The notes under the pieces are model-generated. The model searched no databases. It was not told the DNA's origin and worked only from the letters and a program-made list of their open reading frames with translations. 45,294 nt of DNA from an uncultured Gammaproteobacteria bacterium (lineage in GTDB: Bacteria > Patescibacteriota > Patescibacteriia > 2-01-FULL-39-33). Position 1 is the stretch's first letter. Each line of letters opens with the position of its first letter. Made by a program: the position numbers and the translations under genes. Of this stretch, positions 23,871 through 44,322 are shown piece after piece. The DNA is taken from positions 1 to 45,294 of the forward strand of contig CAYLUK010000001.1 of NCBI GenBank assembly GCA_964386875.1, in the 5' to 3' direction.

Positions 23871-25772
23871 ATGACTAACAACGGAAAACAACCAACTGAC
23901 ATCCGGGAGATAAAACCGGAACAAACCAAAATCATCGAGGCTAACGATCAGTCAGCAGTTATAATTGAACCCCAAAAATTAGATGTCAGAAAGGGTGGCA
24001 ATATTATTATTGGCACCTTAAATATCTTTGCCACGCCGGTCAAAAACCGCTGGCAAAAACATTATCATCCCAAAAACAAAAACTGGCATATTCACCTGAT
24101 TATGGATGCGATTTTAGCCATCATTATTTTAGGACTGATTACCGTTAATATTTATATTTTGAGCTATGGTGAATTTGGTCCGACCAGTAAAGTGGAAATT
24201 ACCATTACAACTAATAGTGAACTGATAATCAGTGGACAAAAAACCAGTTTTGTGATTGATTATAAAAACGGCTCCAAAACCAAACTGACTGATGCCAGCT
24301 TAACTGTTAATCTGCCGGAACACTTCATTATCAATGAAGTATCGCTCCAGACAATATTTACCAACCACAGTAATACATTTTCTCTTGGTGATTTAAATAG
24401 CGGCAGTAATGGCGAAATTACAATTACCGGTGTTGTCCTCGGCCAAACAGATCAAGCCCAAAACATTGACGCATCATTAAGCTTCAAACTTGAAAACTCA
24501 AACCGGAGACAAAGCAAACCAACCAGCTACCAATATGTTATAGCCGGATCAAATCTATCCTTGGCAATAGAAATGCCAAGCCAAGTGTCAAATGGCCAAA
24601 CATTTAATGGTCAAATCAAATACCAAAATAATTCATCAATTGATATTGCCAAACTAATTATCAATTACAGCGCCAACGGCAATAATTTTCAACTGACTGA
24701 TTCATCGCAAATTATCAAAGATAACTCCTGGACAATTATTTACCTTAAAGCCGGCACTGACGGCCAAATTAATTTTTCCGGTAAATTTATCAACTCGCCG
24801 GATGAAAGCGACGCGTCAATAGAATATATGATGGCGATTGGCCTGGGCAATAATGAATTAATCCAACAAAAAATCACCAAAGAAATAACTATCGCCCACT
24901 CAAAATTTAATTTGGAAATTACCGGCCAAAACAACAATATTGATTCCGATAAAGACAGTCAATATAATATCAGCTATCTTAATCAAGAAAATTTTACTCT
25001 GCAAAATGTCACTATCTCGGCCAAATTTGATTCTAATTTGGTTGACAACAATATAATCACTTGGACCAAAGCCGACTTGCCGGAATTGGCCAATATCGCG
25101 CCGGGACAAACCGGAGCAATTTCTTTTCCCATTAAAATCAAATCCACTATCAGTCAACTGACCGAAACTGACAAAAACTTTACGCTCCAAGCCGTGGCCG
25201 AAGCCACCTACCAAACCGCTGATGGCACCAATAATAAATTTTACAGTTTTTCCGACCGGCTAATTCAAAAACTAAATACCGACCTCAATCTCAAAGCCTT
25301 TGGCCGGTATTATACCCAAGAAGGCGACCAGCTTGGCATTGGACCAACACCGCCGATAGTCGGGCAAGTCACTAAATATTGGATATTTTTTAATCTGGAA
25401 AATAAATATAATGATGTTAGTGACGTTATGGTGTCGGCTCGGTTGCCTGAAAATATCTCCTTCACCGGCAAAACCAGCACCACCGAAGATCAACCACCAA
25501 TATTTAACGCCAACAACCGACAAATAAGCTGGCAGATAAATACTGTGACAGCGCCATCTGAATTTTTCTCCAGTATTGGGGCGACATTTGAAATAGAGCT
25601 TATTCCGCAAAATACCGACATTGGCAAAACTGTTGATTTAATAACAAACATTTCAATCACTGGCAATGATGTGTTTACTGGCTACAAAATAATTAAAACT
25701 GTGGATAATATCACGACTAATTTGACCAACGACACCAAGGAAAATAGTGGAGGTGTTGTTCAAGGACAATAA
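23871..25772 (+). CDS. Large membrane-anchored surface protein with repeated beta-sandwich (DUF11/CARDB-like) modules
   Basis: Roughly 75-aa cytoplasmic N-terminus, one TM (IHLIMDAILAIIILGLITVNIYIL), then about 530 aa rich in N/T/S/I with a periodic beta-strand pattern. Confidence 0.55.
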   Translation: MTNNGKQPTDIREIKPEQTKIIEANDQSAVIIEPQKLDVRKGGNIIIGTLNIFATPVKNRWQKHYHPKNKNWHIHLIMDAILAIIILGLITVNIYILSYGEFGPTSKVEITITTNSELIISGQKTSFVIDYKNGSKTKLTDASLTVNLPEHFIINEVSLQTIFTNHSNTFSLGDLNSGSNGEITITGVVLGQTDQAQNIDASLSFKLENSNRRQSKPTSYQYVIAGSNLSLAIEMPSQVSNGQTFNGQIKYQNNSSIDIAKLIINYSANGNNFQLTDSSQIIKDNSWTIIYLKAGTDGQINFSGKFINSPDESDASIEYMMAIGLGNNELIQQKITKEITIAHSKFNLEITGQNNNIDSDKDSQYNISYLNQENFTLQNVTISAKFDSNLVDNNIITWTKADLPELANIAPGQTGAISFPIKIKSTISQLTETDKNFTLQAVAEATYQTADGTNNKFYSFSDRLIQKLNTDLNLKAFGRYYTQEGDQLGIGPTPPIVGQVTKYWIFFNLENKYNDVSDVMVSARLPENISFTGKTSTTEDQPPIFNANNRQISWQINTVTAPSEFFSSIGATFEIELIPQNTDIGKTVDLITNISITGNDVFTGYKIIKTVDNITTNLTNDTKENSGGVVQGQ

Positions 25773-25845: not shown

Positions 25846-25922
25846 ATTAAAAAATATCTAAATTTATACAAATATACCAAAAAATAAAAATACCAATCAC
25901 TGATTACTTTTTAAGGGCTGTC

Positions 25923-25977
25923 TAGTTAACATTAGTCACCCTTATCTTATCAAAAAGTAACCCTTTAATGTTAACTA
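25923..25977. repeat. Perfect 12-bp inverted repeat, its right arm ending 9 nt upstream of the P1 -35 hexamer
   Basis: TAGTTAACATTA (25923-25934) and TAATGTTAACTA (25966-25977), 31-nt spacer. Confidence 0.85.
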
Positions 25978-25986
25978 TACAATGGC

Positions 25987-26015
25987 TTGACAAAATATAA
26001 TATATTTGCTAAGAT
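25987..26015 (+). promoter_or_regulatory. Promoter P1 of the first GC-rich block
   Basis: GGCTTGACA-17 nt (ending TGC)-TAAGAT. 15/15 nt AATGGCTTGACAAAA identical to P2. About 180-nt leader. Confidence 0.6.
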
Positions 26016-26199
26016 ATTCCATTAAGCAGGTTTTTAACCTTGCTTATAAATTAAGGAGAAATTGAACCTTGAAAACAATCCAGTCAGAAAATGACTGGTG
26101 AAAATATATATAAGGGAAGAGAGGTAACAAAAACCAAACAACAACAGGGACAAAGGGTTCCCTAAAACTGGCTAAAAACCAGCAGAAAAGGAGACAAGA

Positions 26200-27639
26200 A
26201 TGAATAAGTATGGATTGTTGATTGGAATGTGTGTATTAGTAGCGGGTCTAACCGGCTGTCCCGAAGGGACGCCGGTGCCGTCGGCAACATTTGAAATCGT
26301 TGACGGCGACTTGTGGCTGAATGTGTATGTCGGCCACACCCCGCTCCAGCGGGTGTTCTATGGCGTGCCATGGGACTTCCGCGAAAAGCGCGAGGAGTTT
26401 CGCCTCGGCCCGATTATGTGGTACGATGATGATGAAATTCCCGGTTTTGTGAACACCGAACCGCTTAGACGCGGTGACACGATGAGCTTCAACCTCGGCG
26501 CGACTACTCCTGACCGGGTTGAGTCACTTCGAGTGACATTGTGTGGAACGTTTAACCGATTGCTTTACGACGATGTATTTCCCAACTGGGGAATCTTGTC
26601 TGATTACCGGGCTCAAAGCTACTTTGAGATTCCGGGCGTCGGTATTTTCAGCTGGGCCAAGATTGGAGAATGGTCGGCCAGCTACAACGGCGTCGCCCTA
26701 GGCGAAGCAGTTGATGCCAGTGGCAATGGACTCGGCTACTGGCAGATTGATCTGCCTCAAGCGCCACCTCCGCCCCAAACCTTTACCTTGACGACCGGCG
26801 TGGTTGGACAGGGCACGGCAACAGGTGGTGGCGTGTATCCAGCCGGAACCAATGTTGTCATCACAGCGAATCCGGCGATTGATTGGCATTTCGTGCGCTG
26901 GCAAGGCGATATTGTGGGCACGGACAATCCGGCGACCGTCACTATGAACAGTAATGTTCTGGCCACGGCCGTATTTGCCCAAGATACGCCACCTCCACCC
27001 GATAACTACACCTTGACGACTAATGTGGTTGGACAAGGCAGTGTCACCGGCGCCGGCGTTTACAACAGCGGAGCTATCGCAACGCTCACAGCGAATCCGG
27101 CGATTGGTTGGCGTTTTGCCGGCTGGACTGGCGATCTAGCTGGATTGCAAAATCCGGCCAATGTCACAATGAACACCAACAAGGGTGTCACGGCGACGTT
27201 TGAACAGATCCCGGAGCCACACACAGACGCGATGGTTGTGTTCACTACGGCTGACAGTGATTCGGTCCAGATGACAATTCTTCCCGGTCAAGAAGACCTG
27301 GGGGGCATCATCTCGCCGGCATCAAACTTGCCGAGTGGAGCAACTTTCGCGGATGTAGCGAGAGTTGGTATCCAATGGATGAGTGTTGGCCACTATCCGT
27401 ACTTCATTCAAGAGGACTATGCCGCGACGATGACAGCATCGGGCTCGCAAATCAAAGCGTTTGGTGCCGACGGCTTTATCCTAAGTAGCCGGCCAAATGA
27501 CTTCAAATGCGTGCCCTATGTGATGGTGACAGGCGATGCCAATACTCGCTACTATGTCAACACCTCAATGGTGCCTGGCAAGTGGGATGGCGTCGCCTTG
27601 ACCCGTCTAATTGACGGGCACAGCTACGACATGAACTAA
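26200..27639 (+). CDS. Lipoprotein with two InlB-B-type (Listeria-Bacteroides) repeats flanked by unknown domains
   Basis: Lipobox LTG|C (residues 17-20). Repeats at about residues 193-335 (TFTLTTGVVGQGTATGGGVY...DWHFVRWQGD...ATAVF; YTLTTNVVGQGSVTGAGVY...GWRFAGWTGD...TATF). AAGGAGA SD. GC-rich after codon ~18. Confidence 0.8.
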   Translation: MNKYGLLIGMCVLVAGLTGCPEGTPVPSATFEIVDGDLWLNVYVGHTPLQRVFYGVPWDFREKREEFRLGPIMWYDDDEIPGFVNTEPLRRGDTMSFNLGATTPDRVESLRVTLCGTFNRLLYDDVFPNWGILSDYRAQSYFEIPGVGIFSWAKIGEWSASYNGVALGEAVDASGNGLGYWQIDLPQAPPPPQTFTLTTGVVGQGTATGGGVYPAGTNVVITANPAIDWHFVRWQGDIVGTDNPATVTMNSNVLATAVFAQDTPPPPDNYTLTTNVVGQGSVTGAGVYNSGAIATLTANPAIGWRFAGWTGDLAGLQNPANVTMNTNKGVTATFEQIPEPHTDAMVVFTTADSDSVQMTILPGQEDLGGIISPASNLPSGATFADVARVGIQWMSVGHYPYFIQEDYAATMTASGSQIKAFGADGFILSSRPNDFKCVPYVMVTGDANTRYYVNTSMVPGKWDGVALTRLIDGHSYDMN

Positions 27640-27710
27640 GTCGGATCGGGGCAGTCAGTAATTGCGCTGACTGCTCCGCCTCCCTTACCTCAACCCAGAA
27701 GGAGACAGCT

Positions 27711-27938
27711 ATGTCACCAGAAGAAGGCTTAGCGATATTGCTCTTGATAGGATTAACTTCGGTGCCGATTTTCTTGATTGGCGGCCGATTTATCCTCGCC
27801 ACGGGCGCGGCAGTTTCCACCGCTATTACCGCGACCAAGCTGGTTGCGGCCGGCACTTTGGCGACCGTCGGCAGTGTCATTCTGCCCATTGGTCAATTTC
27901 TTCAGGATTTTTTTACTTATGTAAAATATCCCCACTAA
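27711..27938 (+). CDS. Small hydrophobic Gly/Ala/Thr-rich membrane ORF (75 aa)
   Basis: AAGGAGACA SD 4 nt upstream. 2-3 predicted TM helices. The last ~14 codons run from GC-rich into AT-rich DNA. Confidence 0.5.
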   Translation: MSPEEGLAILLLIGLTSVPIFLIGGRFILATGAAVSTAITATKLVAAGTLATVGSVILPIGQFLQDFFTYVKYPH

Positions 27939-27974
27939 TTTTATTTTTTTATTTCGTCCATAAATGGACAATTC

Positions 27975-28005
27975 GGACTATCAGATCGCTGGTAGTCCTT
28001 TTTTA
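27975..28005 (+). terminator. Intrinsic terminator ending the first GC-rich block
   Basis: GGACTATCAG-atcg-CTGGTAGTCC followed by TTTTTTATTT. Confidence 0.7.
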
Positions 28006-28097
28006 TTTAAATTTAGCTAATAATATACAAAAATATCTTCAAAATAACGTTATAAATTATGCGTTACACGTGCGGTTATAAACCCACCCCAAATGGC

Positions 28098-28126
28098 TTG
28101 ACAAAACTATTAATCTTTGCTAAAAT
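28098..28126 (+). promoter_or_regulatory. Promoter P2 of the second GC-rich block
   Basis: GGCTTGACA-17 nt (ending TGC)-TAAAAT. About 140-nt leader. Confidence 0.6.
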
Positions 28127-28270
28127 ATGCTGTTAAACATTATTAGCTGATTAAGCTAAAGATGTTTACTGCACGTTAAAAATCAACCTGTAAAACAGGA
28201 GAATTAGATATAGCAACTTAAAAACCACACCCAAACCACCATCCGATTACTCGGAACAAGGAGACAACCA

Positions 28271-29443
28271 ATGGCAATGAGGAAAAGAAGTTCTTCAATT
28301 TTTTATGTAGTGGTACTGATGGTTATTTCTACATCTTTAGGCAATAGCAGTATTATTGCTGCCAAAGATGTTAAACATGAGCAATTCCCAGCAAAATTGT
28401 ATGCGAATGAGGATGTCAACCAAAGCGGATCTGTCGATGCGCTAGACATTCAGATAGTAATCAATGTCGTTCTGGGGCTAGGCTACGACGCGTGCCTGCC
28501 TGATGTTAACCGCAGTGGCGCAGTTGATGCCATTGATATCCAGATGGTGATCAATGCGGTTTTAAGACTACACATCACCTATCCCCCACCCGCCAGCGCC
28601 TACGCAAACTACAACGACGCCTCCGACGAGTTGTGGCTGACGCTTGACTTGGGCGGCGAGACTATGAGTAACGCTTTCATCGGCCTTGATGATGTCGCAG
28701 ACATTACCGAGGTTGGAGTAGCGTCGTGGCTGCCGGAGAAGCAGGCTTGGGATGTCTATTCCACTGCTTCACTCTGGCCTGATGGCTGGCCCGTGGATGT
28801 CCAAGTGGCAAGTTTTCAACCGCCGATCGTGATTCTCAATATTATTGCAATCGGTCCGGTGACTCTTAATCACCCCGACGGCATCTACTGGGGCAACTTG
28901 GACTGGTGGGCATTTTCCTCTAACAAGGAAGTACTGCCAAGGAATCCGGGCGAACCGCAGAAGATTGATTTGGGAGTTGTCTTTGAGCCCGCCAGCGCCT
29001 ACGCAAACTACAACGACGCCTCCGGCGAGTTGTGGCTGACGCTTGACTTGGGCGGCGAGACAGTCCAAAACGCTTTCATCGGCCTTGATGATGTCGCAGA
29101 CATTACCGAGGTTGGAGTAGCGTCGTGGCTGCCGGAGAAGCAGGCTTGGGATGTCTATTCCACTGCTTCACTCTGGCCTGATGGCTGGCCCGTGGATGTC
29201 CAAGTGGCAAGTTTTCAACCGCCGATCGTGATTCTCAATATTATTGCAATCGGTCCGGTGACTCTTAATCACCCCGACGGCATCTACTGGGGCAACTTGG
29301 ACTGGTGGGCATTTTCCTCTAACAAGGAAGTACTGCCAAGGAGTCCCGGTGAGCCCCAGAAAATTAATTTGGGGTTTAACGCTTATCATCTCACCATTGA
29401 AATTATCGGCAATGGCTCAGTGCAAACTAGAGAACTGCCGTAA
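28271..29443 (+). CDS. Secreted protein: signal peptide, two dockerin-type Ca-binding repeats, and a tandemly duplicated 133-aa domain
   Basis: Signal MAMRKRSSSIFYVVVLMVISTSLG. Dockerin repeats DVNQSGSVDALDIQIVINVVLG and DVNRSGAVDAIDIQMVINAVL. Two copies of PASAYANYNDAS.ELWLTLDLGGE... AAGGAGACAA SD. Confidence 0.8.
   Translation: MAMRKRSSSIFYVVVLMVISTSLGNSSIIAAKDVKHEQFPAKLYANEDVNQSGSVDALDIQIVINVVLGLGYDACLPDVNRSGAVDAIDIQMVINAVLRLHITYPPPASAYANYNDASDELWLTLDLGGETMSNAFIGLDDVADITEVGVASWLPEKQAWDVYSTASLWPDGWPVDVQVASFQPPIVILNIIAIGPVTLNHPDGIYWGNLDWWAFSSNKEVLPRNPGEPQKIDLGVVFEPASAYANYNDASGELWLTLDLGGETVQNAFIGLDDVADITEVGVASWLPEKQAWDVYSTASLWPDGWPVDVQVASFQPPIVILNIIAIGPVTLNHPDGIYWGNLDWWAFSSNKEVLPRSPGEPQKINLGFNAYHLTIEIIGNGSVQTRELP
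28589..29386 (+). repeat. In-frame 399-bp tandem duplication (2 copies) inside the dockerin protein gene
   Basis: Copy 1 at 28589-28987, copy 2 at 28988-29386. 274 nt (28670-28943 vs 29069-29342) are identical by hand alignment. Confidence 0.95.
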
Positions 29444-29537
29444 TTTCGCCAAGCAAAAATACTCGGAGTTAGACAGTATGTTTGGCTCCGAGCTAAACTA
29501 CAACAACAGCAAAAAACCAACAAAAAGGAGAAGCAGA

Positions 29538-30734
29538 ATGAACAAGAGCTTGATGATGGTGATTTTGATGGCGCTGGTGTCGGCAATTGCCAGTGCCCAA
29601 GGAACGGTCATTGCAACCGAACGCTACTATGGAGAAGGCGTGGTCGTCAAAGTGGAGGCCGTGCCTGATGCCGGCTGGGTGTTTAGCCACTGGGAAGGCG
29701 CTCTGACTGGCTCAATCAACCCGACGACCATTACCATGAACGCTGATCAAACGGTCCGGGCCGTGTTTATTGAAGAACCGGCTACCACCTTAACAATCAA
29801 TCTTAATGGATATGGCTCGGTAACTCCTAATCCGACCGGTCCTGACTATGTCACCAACACCTTGGTGACGCTCACAGCCACGGCCGATCCTGGCTGGCGC
29901 TTTGACCACTGGGAAGGCGATCTGACCGGCTCAATCAACCCGACGACCATCACTATGGACACGGACAAGACTGTCACGGCCGTATTTGTGGAAATTCCGA
30001 TTGTCAGCTTGACGCTCAACACTATGGGCAGTGGATCTGTCAATCCCAATCCAGCCGGCCCCGATTACTATCAAGGCACTGTCGTGACGGTCACAGCCAC
30101 GGCTGGTATAGGCTGGGCGTTTGACCACTGGGAAGGAGATTTGACTGGGTCAACAAATCCGACGACCGTCGCCATGGACACAAGCAAAACGGCCACGGCT
30201 GTATTTGTGGAAATTCCGGTCAATACTCCGGAGTTTCGCCTGCTAAACAATGGTGGCGCCTTGGATGCCAGTTTCAACGCCAACGGCGTGCCAATCAACA
30301 CTCTCCTCAATGGCGGACTGGCTGCCAATGAAGTAGTGGATCGTCTGGCTATGTGTTTTATGTGGCCAAGCGATGTTCCAAACAATCTGGCCATTGAGCA
30401 TGAACCTCTGCCTGGAGGATTGCCAGCTAACGCTTTCTCGGCAACGGTGAATTTCAACGGCACCAACTGCCTTGATACAAACTATACTGGCGACCGAGAT
30501 TTTCCTTTCGGTGAAGAAGATTCATATTTAGTGTATGGAGTTGTCCGTATCACTAATACGGCCACTGGCAACACTAGGTTTGACTCCATGAACACCGACC
30601 TGATCAACCTCACTTTTGACGGGGTGAGCCAAAATCGGGTTGGCACCAATTTCTTGCTAGTGTTGCGTACCACCTTTGCCCTCACCATTGAGGTAGAAGG
30701 GTCAGGCACAGTCAACACAAATATTGTTCCTTAA
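29538..30734 (+). CDS. Secreted protein with three InlB-B-type repeats and an unknown C-terminal domain
   Basis: Start moved to ATG 29538 (AAGGAGAAG SD; signal MNKSLMMVILMALVSAIASA|QG). Repeats contain GWVFSHWEGALTG, GWRFDHWEGDLTG, GWAFDHWEGDLTG. The track's 29349 start overlaps the upstream gene. Confidence 0.8.
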   Translation: MNKSLMMVILMALVSAIASAQGTVIATERYYGEGVVVKVEAVPDAGWVFSHWEGALTGSINPTTITMNADQTVRAVFIEEPATTLTINLNGYGSVTPNPTGPDYVTNTLVTLTATADPGWRFDHWEGDLTGSINPTTITMDTDKTVTAVFVEIPIVSLTLNTMGSGSVNPNPAGPDYYQGTVVTVTATAGIGWAFDHWEGDLTGSTNPTTVAMDTSKTATAVFVEIPVNTPEFRLLNNGGALDASFNANGVPINTLLNGGLAANEVVDRLAMCFMWPSDVPNNLAIEHEPLPGGLPANAFSATVNFNGTNCLDTNYTGDRDFPFGEEDSYLVYGVVRITNTATGNTRFDSMNTDLINLTFDGVSQNRVGTNFLLVLRTTFALTIEVEGSGTVNTNIVP

Positions 30735-30813: not shown

Positions 30814-30919
30814 GAACCCTTAAATCTATTAATATATTTACCTAAATTTGACTAAACATATAAAAATATCCTCAAAATATTACTCATTACCCATTACTTT
30901 TTCTTTACTTTTTTCTGGC

Positions 30920-30948
30920 TTGACAATTTTTTTCAGATATGGTAAGAT
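30920..30948 (+). promoter_or_regulatory. Promoter P3 (glycosyltransferase gene)
   Basis: GGCTTGACA-17 nt (ending TGG)-TAAGAT, 19 nt upstream of ATG 30968. Confidence 0.6.
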
Positions 30949-30967
30949 GATACATCAATTTAAAAGT

Positions 30968-32119
30968 ATGAAAATAGCGTTTATCGGACAAAAAGGCATC
31001 CCAACCAAGCAGGGCGGGATCGAAAAACACGTTCAAGAGCTTAGTACCAGACTGGCTAAAGCTGATTTTGACGTGACTGTATATTCTAGGCCTTATTATA
31101 CTGGTAGCCACCGAACAAAATACGGCCAAATTAAAATTGTTAATTTGCCATCTTTAAAAACTAAAAATTTTGATGCCATCAGTCACACCTTTTTGGCCAG
31201 TATTCATGCTATTTTCCAAAACTACGACATTATCCATTATCATGGCGTCGGCCCATCATTAATGTCATGGATTCCCAGACTATTCAATCCTTGTGCCAAA
31301 GTAATCGCCACTTTTCATTGTGTTGATCGAAAACATCAAAAGTGGGGACTAATCGCCAGAACTATGCTCGGACTTGGCGAATGGGCCACTTGCCGTTTTC
31401 CCCATGAGACAATCGTCGTATCTGAAACTTTGAAAAAGTATTGTGAATATAGATTTGATCGACAAACCACCTACATCCCCAATGGTGTTCAAATCAATCA
31501 CAGCAAACAAAAAAGTGATATTATTGCTAACTATGGTCTAAAGCAAGACCGGTATTTACTGATAGTTTCTCGACTGGTCAAACATAAAGGAATTCACACT
31601 TTAATTGAAGCGTATCAAAAAACCAAGACCAACCAGAAACTGGTAATCGTTGGTACTGGTTCAAATACCAATAATTATATTGACTACTTGAAAGAACTGG
31701 CTCAAGGCAATGAAAATATTATTTTTACCGGCCAGAAAAGTGGCAATGATCTAGAAACCCTATTTCGTGGCGCCTATGCCTTTGTCCAGCCATCAGAAGC
31801 GGAAGGACTGTCAATCGCCTTACTTGAAGCGATTGCTTATGGCCTGCCAGTGATAATCAGCAACATTGAAGAGAATATTGAAGCGGCTAATGGCTTTGGC
31901 ATTGTATTTGAAAATCGTAACATTAATGACTTAAGTAATAAAATTACTTGGGTAATTAAAAATAAAGCCCTAATTAAGAAGCAAGCACGAGTAGCAAAAA
32001 ATAAAATTAACCAAAAATATAATTGGACTGATATTGCCAGCCAAACCAGCGAACTATACCAAAACATTGTTGCAGAAAACAGAAACAGAAAATATCTGCC
32101 CAAGATTATTTTGAAATAA
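30968..32119 (+). CDS. GT4-family glycosyltransferase
   Basis: Start moved to ATG 30968 (MKIAFIGQKGIPTKQGGIEKHV); the track's upstream extension covers the promoter. E-x7-E motif EAEGLSIALLEAIAYGLPVI. Host-like AT-rich composition. Confidence 0.85.
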   Translation: MKIAFIGQKGIPTKQGGIEKHVQELSTRLAKADFDVTVYSRPYYTGSHRTKYGQIKIVNLPSLKTKNFDAISHTFLASIHAIFQNYDIIHYHGVGPSLMSWIPRLFNPCAKVIATFHCVDRKHQKWGLIARTMLGLGEWATCRFPHETIVVSETLKKYCEYRFDRQTTYIPNGVQINHSKQKSDIIANYGLKQDRYLLIVSRLVKHKGIHTLIEAYQKTKTNQKLVIVGTGSNTNNYIDYLKELAQGNENIIFTGQKSGNDLETLFRGAYAFVQPSEAEGLSIALLEAIAYGLPVIISNIEENIEAANGFGIVFENRNINDLSNKITWVIKNKALIKKQARVAKNKINQKYNWTDIASQTSELYQNIVAENRNRKYLPKIILK

Positions 32120-32147
32120 AATTAGCATCAATAAACAAAATAATTAA

Positions 32148-32185
32148 AAGCCCCGAACCAAAACGTGTTTGGGGCTTTTATTTTC
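32148..32185 (+). terminator. Intrinsic terminator after the GT4 gene
   Basis: AAGCCCCGAAC-caaaacgt-GTTTGGGGCTT followed by TTATTTTC. Confidence 0.65.
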
Positions 32186-32439
32186 TAAAAAAGTCTTCAA
32201 AATAATGCGGTCTTGAAAGATTTAACCACAAAACTAAGGCGAAGACGAACGATTTTGCCATCGTTTATGGCAAAAAGATTTTTACTGTTTAAAACCGCCG
32301 ATTAAAATCAAAAAAAAAGCGGTTGAGCTAAAAAATCTAATGAAGATGAGCAGTTAGGTTTTGTCTATTTTTTTCAACAGTTGCGATTTTGGCTCCACCC
32401 TCATAAAAAGATGGGGATGATATTTAGAATATTTTATTT

Positions 32440-40824: not shown

Positions 40825-40898
40825 ATATTGTATTTTGATATTTAAATTTTTTTGTATCTTGTTTTTTGTTCCGTGTTATACGTTTTGCGTTATGTATT

Positions 40899-42158
40899 TT
40901 AATCCAGGGGTGACATCTTTCTCAACTTCTTAATAATCGGCGGAAGTTCCTTGATCAACGCCTTGACATCTTGTTTGGTTGTAAACCGACCCAAAGTGAC
41001 ACGCAGACTGCCATGAGCCAACTCTGGAGCGATACTCATCGCGGTCAGAACATGAGACGGCTCAAGCGAGCCAGATGAACAAGCCGATCCAGTAGACACC
41101 GCAATCCCCTTGTCTGATAACATTAAAACCACACTTTCACCTTCAACGCCCTTGAAAATAAAATTAGCATTGCTCGGCACCCGGAATTTCATATCACCAT
41201 TAACTATGGCGTCTGGTATTTTATTTTTTATTTGTCTAATTAAGTAATCCCTTAATAATTGAGTTTTCTTAATTTCTTGATTTTTCCCGCCTGCAACGCT
41301 ATCGCTTGCATTGCGGACAGGTAATTTTTTATCAGCAATTAATTCAATTGCCTTTGCCAGTCCTACAATCCCCGACACATTATAGGTACCTGGTCTAACA
41401 TTATCTTGCTGATGACCGCCATATATCATTGGCACGATTGGCGTACCCTTTTTAATATAAATCACTCCAATGCCTTTGGGACCATATATTTTATGCGCGG
41501 ACAAAGACATTAAGTCTACGCCTAGCTTGTTAATATCACAATTGCAATAGCTTGGCGCTTGTGTCGCATCAGTGTGGAAGTATATTCTCCCACCCTTACT
41601 AAGGGAGGAACTAATGGGTGATTGTCCAAATCCCCTGCTTTTATTTAAATCAGCGATAAATTTACCAATTTGCGCAATAGGTTGAATCGTACCCACCTCG
41701 TTGTTGACATACATAATAGAAACTAAAACCGTGTTCGGTCTAATCGCCTTTTTGAGCTGACTTAATTCCACCAATCCTTTTTTATTAACTGGCAGATATG
41801 TCACCTTTACCCCGGAACTCTCTAATTGATGACTTGGCTCCAAAATCGCATCATGCTCAATCTGTGATACAACAATATGAACCGGTTGCGCTCCATTTAA
41901 TGCCCCAGAGACCCCCAAAATGGCCATATTATCGCTTTCAGTCGCTCCTGAGGTGAAATATACTTCCTCTTTGGCACAGCCCAAAAACTGAGCAATTTTG
42001 GCTTGGCTCCGGTCAATCACCACCCGATTATCAAGTCCTGCTTGGTACAAAGATGAAGCATTGCCAAACTTATTGGTAAAATAAGGCAACATTGCTTTGA
42101 GCACGCGCGGATCTACCGGCGTAGTAGCTGAATTATCTAAATAAATTAATTTCTTCAT
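40899..42158 (-). CDS. iscS: Cysteine desulfurase (NifS/IscS group I) with GC-rich in-frame insert(s)
   Basis: PLP-lysine motif SLSAHKIYGPKG, active-site loop SSGSACSSG. Roughly 20-aa insert LNKSRGFGQSPISSSLSKGGR. Confidence 0.92.
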   Translation of the reverse strand: MKKLIYLDNSATTPVDPRVLKAMLPYFTNKFGNASSLYQAGLDNRVVIDRSQAKIAQFLGCAKEEVYFTSGATESDNMAILGVSGALNGAQPVHIVVSQIEHDAILEPSHQLESSGVKVTYLPVNKKGLVELSQLKKAIRPNTVLVSIMYVNNEVGTIQPIAQIGKFIADLNKSRGFGQSPISSSLSKGGRIYFHTDATQAPSYCNCDINKLGVDLMSLSAHKIYGPKGIGVIYIKKGTPIVPMIYGGHQQDNVRPGTYNVSGIVGLAKAIELIADKKLPVRNASDSVAGGKNQEIKKTQLLRDYLIRQIKNKIPDAIVNGDMKFRVPSNANFIFKGVEGESVVLMLSDKGIAVSTGSACSSGSLEPSHVLTAMSIAPELAHGSLRVTLGRFTTKQDVKALIKELPPIIKKLRKMSPLD

Positions 42159-42179
42159 AAAAACATTATGCGTTACACG

Positions 42180-42425
42180 TTATGAGTTTTGCGCTAACAC
42201 CACTTCCTTAACCTCCGAGATTTTTTCTTTAATCGCCCGACCGATACCGTCTTGTAAAGTAATTTGCGACATCGGACAGCCAATACAAGCTCCTTTTAAA
42301 CTGACTTTCAAAATCCCTTTTTTATCATCAAAATCAATAAACTCAACATCGCCATCATCTCGCTGGAGATGTGGCCGTATTTGATCTAAACTTTTTTTAA
42401 TCTTGGCCATAGTTTGTTTTGACAT
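42180..42425 (-). CDS. NifU C-terminal-domain (Nfu-type) Fe-S carrier protein
   Basis: 81 aa, GACIGCPMSQITL CxxC motif. Confidence 0.85.
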   Translation of the reverse strand: MSKQTMAKIKKSLDQIRPHLQRDDGDVEFIDFDDKKGILKVSLKGACIGCPMSQITLQDGIGRAIKEKISEVKEVVLAQNS

Positions 42426-44283: not shown

Positions 44284-44322
44284 AAATGGCGTTATGTGTT
44301 TTATGTTATGCGTTCTGTGTTT

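Follow-up and report, generated by a model that had tools for sequence, protein, structure and literature searches.

The stretch of DNA analysed here (the window, 45,294 nucleotides (nt) long) is contig C1 of the genome of an uncultured bacterium of the Patescibacteriota, which comprises 929 kb in 90 contigs, has a GC content of 39% and a non-coding share of 13%, and is estimated to be 90% complete. Genes were defined by crude calls of the longest open reading frame (ORF), hand-corrected inside the window. At 26200-30734 the window carries an island of four ORFs with a GC content of 50-54% and a third-codon-position GC content (GC3) of 0.53-0.59, against ~0.31-0.39 for the native genes rpsG and fusA. 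In the first of its two units, ORF1 encodes a lipoprotein with two InlB B-repeat domains and ORF2 a protein of 75 amino acids, while in the second ORF3 encodes a dockerin protein and ORF4 a protein with three InlB B-repeat domains. The segment of interest, 28008-28270, separates the terminator of the first unit from the second unit, and an earlier note had described it as one instance of a reiterated spacer, promoter and long C/A-rich leader, that is, as a duplicated expression cassette, possibly with leader-based regulation. The repeated arrangement of spacer, promoter and leader is real, yet it consists of three separate things: a gene-end repeat, a strong promoter and a unique leader.

Every sequence that the earlier note quoted lies where it was placed. 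We set the local alignment scores of the intergenic regions of the island (IG1, ahead of the first unit; IG2, between the units; IG3, after the second unit) against those of 3000 random intergenic pairs from the same genome. The IG1-IG2 alignment falls in the top 1.0% of random pairs, its aligned portion being the promoter, and the IG2-IG3 and IG1-IG3 alignments fall in the top 1.5% and 4%, the aligned portion being in both cases the spacer. The similarity therefore beats that of random intergenic pairs, though only within modules of 45-55 nt. The spacer at 28008-28046 recurs at 30843-30879, with ~33 of 39 aligned columns matching by hand count (32 had been reported), and its remnant, TCTTCAAAATAA, is found at 32194-32205. 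The looser version proposed for IG1 is a degenerate copy at ~25857-25912, weak, which aligns to IG3 from CTAAA to ATTACTTTTT. Of the duplicated cassette, what stands is the promoter module, plausibly a local duplicate; the spacer is a genome-wide repeat and the leaders are unrelated in sequence. The features on which this view is based are collected in Table 1.

Table 1. Coordinates of the island units and of the repeat, promoter and leader elements around them in the window.
Feature	Position	Strand	Description
Island unit 1	26200-27938	+	ORF1 26200-27639 and ORF2 27711-27938; Pfam PF18998; GC3 0.59 and 0.53
Intrinsic terminator of unit 1	27975-28004	+	10-pair stem, then TTTTTT
Island unit 2	28271-30734	+	ORF3 28271-29443 and ORF4 29538-30734
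IG1 degenerate repeat copy	25857-25912	+	CTAAATTTA...ATACCAATCACTGATTACTTTTT; lies after the terminator-like hairpin of the 633-amino-acid ORF; aligns to IG3; families D6 and D16
IG2 repeat copy	28008-28085	+	A-rich lead-in; degenerate box ATACAAAAATA 28025-28035; box TCTTCAAAATA 28036-28046; CGTTAT-type array 28047-28085
IG3 repeat copy	30843-30915	+	ATATAAAAATA and TCCTCAAAATA (30858-30879), then ATTAC-type array 30880-30915, ending exactly at P3
IG4 repeat	32183-32311	+	box TCTTCAAAATA 32194-32204 after the GT4 terminator; opens a 119-nt repeat
P1	25981-26028	+	-35 TTGACA 25987-25992, TG, -10 TAAGAT 26010-26015; 10/12, 17-nt spacer
P2	28092-28139	+	-35 TTGACA 28098-28103, TG, -10 TAAAAT 28121-28126; 11/12, 17-nt spacer
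P3, native GT4 gene	30914-30961	+	-35 TTGACA from 30920, TG, -10 TAAGAT 30943-30948; 10/12, 17-nt spacer
Leader 1, ~178 nt	26022-26199	+	5' hairpin 26023-26046; hairpin 26080-26098; C/A tract ~26127-26187; Shine-Dalgarno AAGGAGA 26188-26194
Leader 2, ~138 nt	28133-28270	+	5' hairpin 28134-28168; hairpin 28187-28199; C/A tract ~28213-28257; Shine-Dalgarno AAGGAGA 28258-28264

The spacer belongs to a dispersed repeat with three parts. A lead-in rich in A comes first; next is an 11-nt box (TCTTCAAAATA), of which most copies carry two, spaced 11 nt apart; and the last is a variable module, most commonly an array with a 7-nt period (RTTAYNN, 3-6 heptads, either GCGTTAT-like or GATTACN-like). The genome search that the earlier note had suggested as a way to further cassettes led elsewhere: ~29 curated spacer copies on ~20 contigs, at gene ends. 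Exact copies of the 11-mer number 16, all of them in non-coding DNA, and the double box, allowing at most two mismatches, has 14 copies in the genome, whereas its reversed control has none. Of 30 relatives belonging to other genera, 29 lack any match to the double box (the remaining one has two 2-mismatch matches), and across 596 Gb of genome contigs only 19 single matches were obtained; we found the repeat itself in this genome only. Information content in the anchored alignment of 27 copies is limited to the two boxes. Heptad arrays of at least three units number 36-39 in the genome, versus 13 in the reversed control.

Several copies in the window have close counterparts on other contigs. 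The closest match of the IG2 copy is an exact 22-nt stretch on contig C12 (C12:14766-14787), and the array of the IG3 copy matches C33:2835-2863, its downstream part ranking third among 435 copy pairs. Upstream of the box, the flanks of the IG1, IG2 and IG3 copies are more alike than those of most copies (ranks 3-5 of 435, with IG1 versus IG2 in third place), and some local copying is therefore likely. The 119-nt repeat of IG4 (32193-32311) is 85% identical to C21:11066-11184; it starts with a TCTTCAAAAT box, includes a terminator-like hairpin (TTTTGCCATCGTTTATGGCAAAA) and has, relative to the flanking genes, opposite orientations at the two loci; either a small RNA or an extended version of the box repeat is conceivable. 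Three more arrays, of the GYGTTWT type, are found at gene boundaries of the window (40875-40902, 42165-42192 and 44291-44311), two of them scored as abutting minus-strand stop codons and the one at 42165 lying 7 nt upstream of a minus-strand start codon. The genome additionally harbours another abundant intergenic family, TTAGAAATTAGGTGAATTAGAAATT (~30 segments), and a REP-like family, GTCATTGCGAG...CGTGGCAATCC (~25-30 segments); C2:24608, C25:8629 and C48 ~3830 are examples of one or the other. The REP-like sequence, also seen as GTCATTGCGAG...GGCAATCC, is a family separate from the box repeat that stands beside some box copies. Because both of these families often adjoin box copies, the spacers are mosaics of repeat modules.

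The position of the repeat relative to genes is what separates it from a promoter element. Once two mis-called window genes are corrected, the 27 placed copies divide into 18 in spacers of the co-directional kind, 9 in convergent ones and none in divergent ones; as background, spacers of 60 nt or more are 76% co-directional, 10% convergent and 13% divergent. Both orientations of the repeat relative to transcription occur. By inspection, what precedes the box side is in most cases an intrinsic terminator or a REP-like hairpin, and in 16 listed copies the array begins at, or overlaps, the stop codon of the gene on the opposite strand. Read in the sense of the abutted gene, the array is (NNRTAAY)n, which places TAA in all three frames; the reverse strand of the IG2 array likewise has TAA in all three frames. 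About 22 of the 30 intergenic heptad arrays abut a stop codon, and the same polarity is seen in arrays without a box. All of the window copies come after the terminator of the preceding unit, and, unlike most arrays, those of IG2 and IG3 face a promoter, not a stop codon. With copies following terminators or lying against stop codons, we therefore count the spacer as part of the 3' end of the unit before it, and the distribution agrees with a repeat that inserts in association with gene ends, and not with a promoter element lying upstream.

The junction between rpsG and fusA gives a view of such insertions across genera. The spacer is 6-20 nt long in six relatives versus 121 nt here, where it is made up of an array, a box and AT-rich sequence. 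Other genera have other heptad arrays at this place, one genome carrying a CGTAATN array with no box (G004). In a set of 19 relatives (L040-L058) the rpsG-fusA spacers measure 6-139 nt and contain CGTAATN, ACGAATN, TTTTCAA, CTTTATAAA or other short tandem arrays, according to the genus. The different arrays in different genera indicate independent colonisation of one operon junction.

Like REP/BIME, ERIC, Correia and RUP/BOX MITEs, the box repeat is short, strictly intergenic, present in many copies and over-represented in convergent spacers and at the 3' ends of genes. Unlike REP/REPIN elements, it has a direct 11-nt double box and no palindrome, and no RAYT/Y1 transposase (PF01797) was found in this 90%-complete genome, which rules against a REP/REPIN assignment; a MITE was likewise discarded, judging on the termini, for the 27-copy anchored alignment has no conserved inverted ends. 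Tandem 7-nt intergenic units at many loci are also the mark of the cyanobacterial STRR repeats, whose units seem to differ in sequence from the heptads described here. What sets the heptad array apart from known dispersed repeats is its polarity, with TAA phased into all three frames right after a stop codon. A literature search for intergenic repeats of Patescibacteria gave nothing on point, and the box repeat, with its direct 11-nt double box and its polar heptad array phased for three-frame stops directly after genes, is a new family.

The promoter is the second of the three components. P1 and P2, between which the earlier note had seen shared promoter sequences, are two of three near-consensus sites, the other being P3, and each of these has the -35 element, a spacer within the 16-18 nt range, the TAnnnT and the TG of a sigma-70 extended -10 promoter. 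Their TTGACA, 17-nt spacer, TG and TAAGAT/TAAAAT are those of bacterial extended -10 (TGn) promoters. Unlike plain promoters of this kind, P1 and P2 have in common AATGGC ahead of the -35 element, as well as the sequence from the predicted start to ~+12, a stretch that takes in the opening bases of the two 5' hairpins (TTAAGCA and TTAAACA), and this suggests duplication, not convergence alone. Within the 929-kb genome AATGGCTTGACAAAA occurs twice, in P1 and P2 only, and TGGCTTGACA eight times, three of them here and only these three with a proper extended -10, while TTGACAAAA alone is found in 35 non-coding segments. We defined a strict promoter as TTGACA-N14-TGnTAnnAT, a pattern with 34 occurrences in the genome. 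Among 496 pairs of strict promoters, the P1-P2 core is tied for first place (21 of the 32 non-fixed positions match, z = 3.35), with P1-P3 in twelfth; the flanks of P1 and P2 have no significant similarity. One strain has TGAC in place of the TGGC of P2, so the additional bases shared by P1 and P2 are not strictly conserved. On the strength of these sequence comparisons, P1 and P2 are probably local duplicates of one module of ~48 nt (-41 to ~+12), laid over a strong genome-wide consensus.

The leaders, as the third component, have a common architecture and no common sequence. Both pairs of hairpin arms that the earlier note had described are present in each leader. The 5' hairpin lies 0-2 nt from the predicted start and ranks 14th (leader 1) and 3rd (leader 2) in energy among 66 promoters, and the predicted folds of the two leaders are more stable than those of shuffled sequence (z = -3.05 and -3.45). 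Leader 1 has an internal Shine-Dalgarno (SD)-like AAGGAGA at 26053-26059, 9 nt after which a TTG opens a possible upstream ORF (uORF) of 10 codons (26069-26101); in leader 2 the hairpin at 28187-28199 overlaps an SD-like AGGAGA. Next come C/A tracts of 45-60 nt, which are G-poor and unpaired, and then the AAGGAGA, 5-6 nt before the ATG, which is unpaired in the minimum-energy and centroid folds of both leaders. The C/A richness previously reported for the leader ends was gauged upstream of all four island ORFs, where C+A at -60 to -13 is at the 97th, 79th, 100th and 98.7th percentile (the first and third of these being leaders 1 and 2). Across the strict promoters of the genome the median leader is 57 nt (interquartile range 43-123), and 9 of 44 intergenic strict promoters lie at least 130 nt from the next gene; the two leaders, at their predicted lengths, are therefore long, not exceptional. 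The native GT4 and pilB genes, by contrast, have leaders of ~13-18 nt with no SD (~13 nt for GT4).

Searches for regulatory devices in the leaders gave negative results. The Rfam scan returned no match at the gathering threshold, and at E <= 5 only four weak sub-threshold matches, three at 32106-32193 and one at 25879-25927, none of them inside a leader. Neither 26016-26199 nor 28127-28270 holds a plus-strand terminator-like site of the kind expected for an attenuator, the leader hairpins being followed by A-rich sequence. No credible small ORF was found in the leaders (in leader 2 the SD-like site is not followed by a start codon), and a short-query BLASTN search (blastn-short) for leader paralogues across the whole genome returned only the box and the promoter core. 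With the SD unpaired as well, the leader-based regulation once suggested finds no backing here, and the leaders look suited, as far as the predicted folds go, to a stable and well-translated mRNA, not to regulation. On the minus strand, the hairpins at 26080-26098, 26145-26164 and 28187-28199 precede T-rich runs and were scored as terminator-like; no minus-strand gene lies downstream, and these scores are probably a by-product of the A/C-rich sense strand.

Analogues for such leaders are known from other bacteria. The 5' hairpin of E. coli ompA, the leader of B. subtilis aprE and the STAB-SD of B. thuringiensis cryIIIA stabilise mRNA from its 5' end, and a hairpin 0-2 nt from the predicted 5' end together with an internal SD-like AGGAGA far upstream makes the island leaders resemble them by analogy, unlike as they are in sequence. 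Unstructured A/C-rich translation enhancers, such as CA-repeat enhancers and ribosome standby sites, are also known, and the G-poor, unpaired C/A tracts directly before an exposed SD could be their counterparts, although they are not simple CA repeats.

The pairing of a strong promoter with a good SD extends beyond the island. Genes after strict promoters have a mean GC content of 0.452 versus 0.399 (Mann-Whitney p = 6e-6), and 46% of them exceed a GC content of 0.46, versus 8% of all genes; many start with signal peptides or lipoprotein signal motifs. Loci of this kind include C6:19209, C5:26816, C33:4744-5976, C2:28646-29629 and C3:17549-18013. AAGGAG, the core of the SD noted earlier on the island genes, is present on all four island ORFs versus 50 of 846 genes genome-wide, when the most favourable start codon of each gene is used, and it precedes 10 of 27 strict-promoter genes versus 44 of 827 others (p = 1.6e-6) and, more generally, 11 of 44 GC-rich genes versus 43 of 810. 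Strong promoters and AAGGAG are thus associated with GC-rich genes throughout the genome, and the combination is not private to the island. The strict-promoter genes as a class have no C/A richness (p = 0.16), and the C/A-rich tract is more island-specific than the combination of promoter and SD. The strong promoter, the exposed SD and the C/A tract do separate the island genes from their native neighbours, but the pairing of promoter and AAGGAG is a pattern of GC-rich genes across the genome.

Leaders and promoters are AT-rich like the host (control regions 23-39% GC), and GC content climbs only within the ORFs, past the signal-peptide codons. Searches of 5.8 billion proteins and of 400 sampled Patescibacteria genomes turned up no relative of ORF3, and the genome contigs searched yielded no close relative of ORF1; the nearest relative of ORF1 and ORF4 (P0002) lies on a visibly GC-rich contig, and its upstream region has, by eye, no resemblance to those studied here. 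The junctions of the island are present in four independent metagenome assemblies, at 99.3-99.99% identity, and the region is therefore not an assembly chimera. These strains also vary within the genes: a 399-nt in-frame tandem duplication in ORF3 (28589-29386) differs by strain, being single-copy in L036, and in L035 and L036 a 6-nt patch (29062-29068) is exchanged for the version of the other duplicate, which is consistent with gene conversion. Strain L002 has ~28 differences in the signal-peptide codons of ORF3 (28265-28357), including an in-frame 3-nt deletion, unlike its ORF1, ORF2 and leader 2, which are almost invariant. A second variable patch, 23928-23996, lies at the N-terminus of the 633-amino-acid ORF.

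Our preferred explanation, which we hold with moderate confidence, is one of constitutive high-expression signals standing beside a gene-end repeat. In this proposal 28008-28270, like 25857-26199 and 30843-30967, would be a junction between transcription units in which three independent layers meet. The first, the gene-end repeat, may be selfish or structural filler of the REP/MITE/STRR kind, a bystander at the close of the previous unit. The near-consensus extended -10 sigma-70 promoter would form the next layer, with P1 and P2 presumably firing constitutively, and promoters of this type with AAGGAG sites would preferentially drive GC-rich, compositionally foreign genes, often for secreted proteins. 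The last layer would be the unique leader, whose 5' hairpin, possibly together with a ribosome at the internal SD-like site, could shield the mRNA from 5'-end-dependent decay, and whose open C/A tract and AAGGAGA could make initiation efficient in a genome where most genes lack such an SD. A number of observations sit less easily with these constitutive signals and bystander repeat. How long the leaders are, and whether their hairpins are 5'-terminal, depends on predicted starts, 6-8 nt after the -10 element, and the 16S rRNA 3' end that carries the anti-SD is absent from the assembly. Four other strains have nearly invariant control regions, with only two changes in the leaders proper and two more beside the SD of ORF3, and one change, G26149A, breaks a pair in a small predicted hairpin of leader 1. 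The TCTTCA-N5-TCTTCA of the double box shares its geometry with response-regulator binding sites. Finally, and above all, three or four boxes fall within 6.4 kb versus ~0.2 expected from the genome average, a clustering that a purely selfish repeat leaves unexplained, the chief fact for which our explanation does not account, and that leaves room for a link between the box and the assembly of the island.

The geometry of the double box makes an operator the natural counter-proposal, in which a lineage-specific DNA-binding regulator would recognise the two 11-nt repeats, set one helical turn apart, and control the island units together with ~25 other loci; the spacer would in that case be a true control element upstream of P2 and P3. 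Hexamer-N5-hexamer direct repeats are the form of OmpR/PhoB-type sites, the boxes are strictly non-coding and gather round the island, and from the box start to the -35 element there are 62 nt at P2 and 51 nt at P3, which differ by exactly 11 nt. A constant helical phasing of box and -35 element, true for these two promoters, fails for the other copies, however, and by inspection the distance from box to promoter varies in the C22, IG1 and IG4 copies. The divergent spacers, rich in promoters, hold none of the 27 copies and the convergent ones nine, the copies lie either way round relative to neighbouring genes, many of them against stop codons, and no Trans_reg_C domain (PF00486) was found in the 90%-complete genome; we thus set aside an OmpR/PhoB-type site, despite its fitting geometry, and regard the operator in general as unlikely. 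With neither an OmpR-type domain nor a Y1 transposase found, neither obvious partner of the box is supported. Turning from the box to the leaders, these could have a regulatory role, as riboswitches, as attenuators or by way of a leader peptide from the 10-codon uORF, and tune the expression of the secreted proteins. Their lengths of 178 and 138 nt do exceed the genome median, they fold better than shuffled sequence, and in leader 1 an SD is followed by the TTG uORF, which ends inside the second hairpin. This reading, too, strikes us as improbable, given leaders of unexceptional length for this genome that have no Rfam match, no hairpin with a plus-strand U-run, an SD open in both types of fold, no start codon after the SD-like site of leader 2, and neither likeness to each other nor paralogues.

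Two further readings concern ways in which the repeat could have shaped the island. The double box and the TAA-phased array might constitute a functional gene-end module of this Patescibacteria lineage, not described before, for instance a protein-bound 'full stop' that combines three-frame stops with a block to read-through transcription, and the island might have been assembled by recombination at such modules, each unit gaining a copy of a host consensus promoter; we think this rather improbable. Another reading, in which box and heptads are recombination or insertion sites and the island is built from promoter-bearing cassettes, each unit bracketed by one, can draw on the excess of boxes in the 6.4 kb, on the unusual IG2 and IG3 arrays that face a promoter, and on P3, which begins exactly at the end of the IG3 array. 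We judge it very unlikely, since by inspection the boxes have no clear association with GC-rich genes outside the window (a weak one at most), neither an empty site nor a different cassette was seen in the four other assemblies, the boxes repeat directly, unlike the inverted repeats typical of a recombinase core, and the Y1 transposase was not found in the genome. At the other extreme, the resemblance could be what any AT-rich intergenic regions with consensus promoters display, with no common origin. Nine of the 15 bases of the shared AATGGCTTGACAAAA are indeed TTGACAAAA, the commonest non-coding 9-mer outside the larger repeat families, TTTGCTAAGAT-like -10 regions occur at other promoters on contigs C20 and C33, and the promoter flanks are dissimilar. 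Chance of this sort is nevertheless hardly credible when P1-P2 is tied for first among the 496 pairs with the fixed positions removed, when three of the eight TGGCTTGACA occurrences, the sole ones with a proper extended -10, lie here, and when three intergenic pairs reach the top 1-4%.

To return to the constitutive signals beside a gene-end repeat, neither the promoters nor the leader features are of an unusual kind. For annotation, the spacer should be treated as a dispersed gene-end repeat and not as a promoter element, and the box and heptad family provides a well-defined case of a heptad array, polar, stop-abutting and found in this genome only. The island genes would be expected to have strong, constitutive expression of surface or secreted proteins in an ultra-small bacterium. 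The association of perfect promoters and AAGGAG with GC-rich genes for secreted proteins suggests how a reduced genome with few regulators may employ foreign genes.

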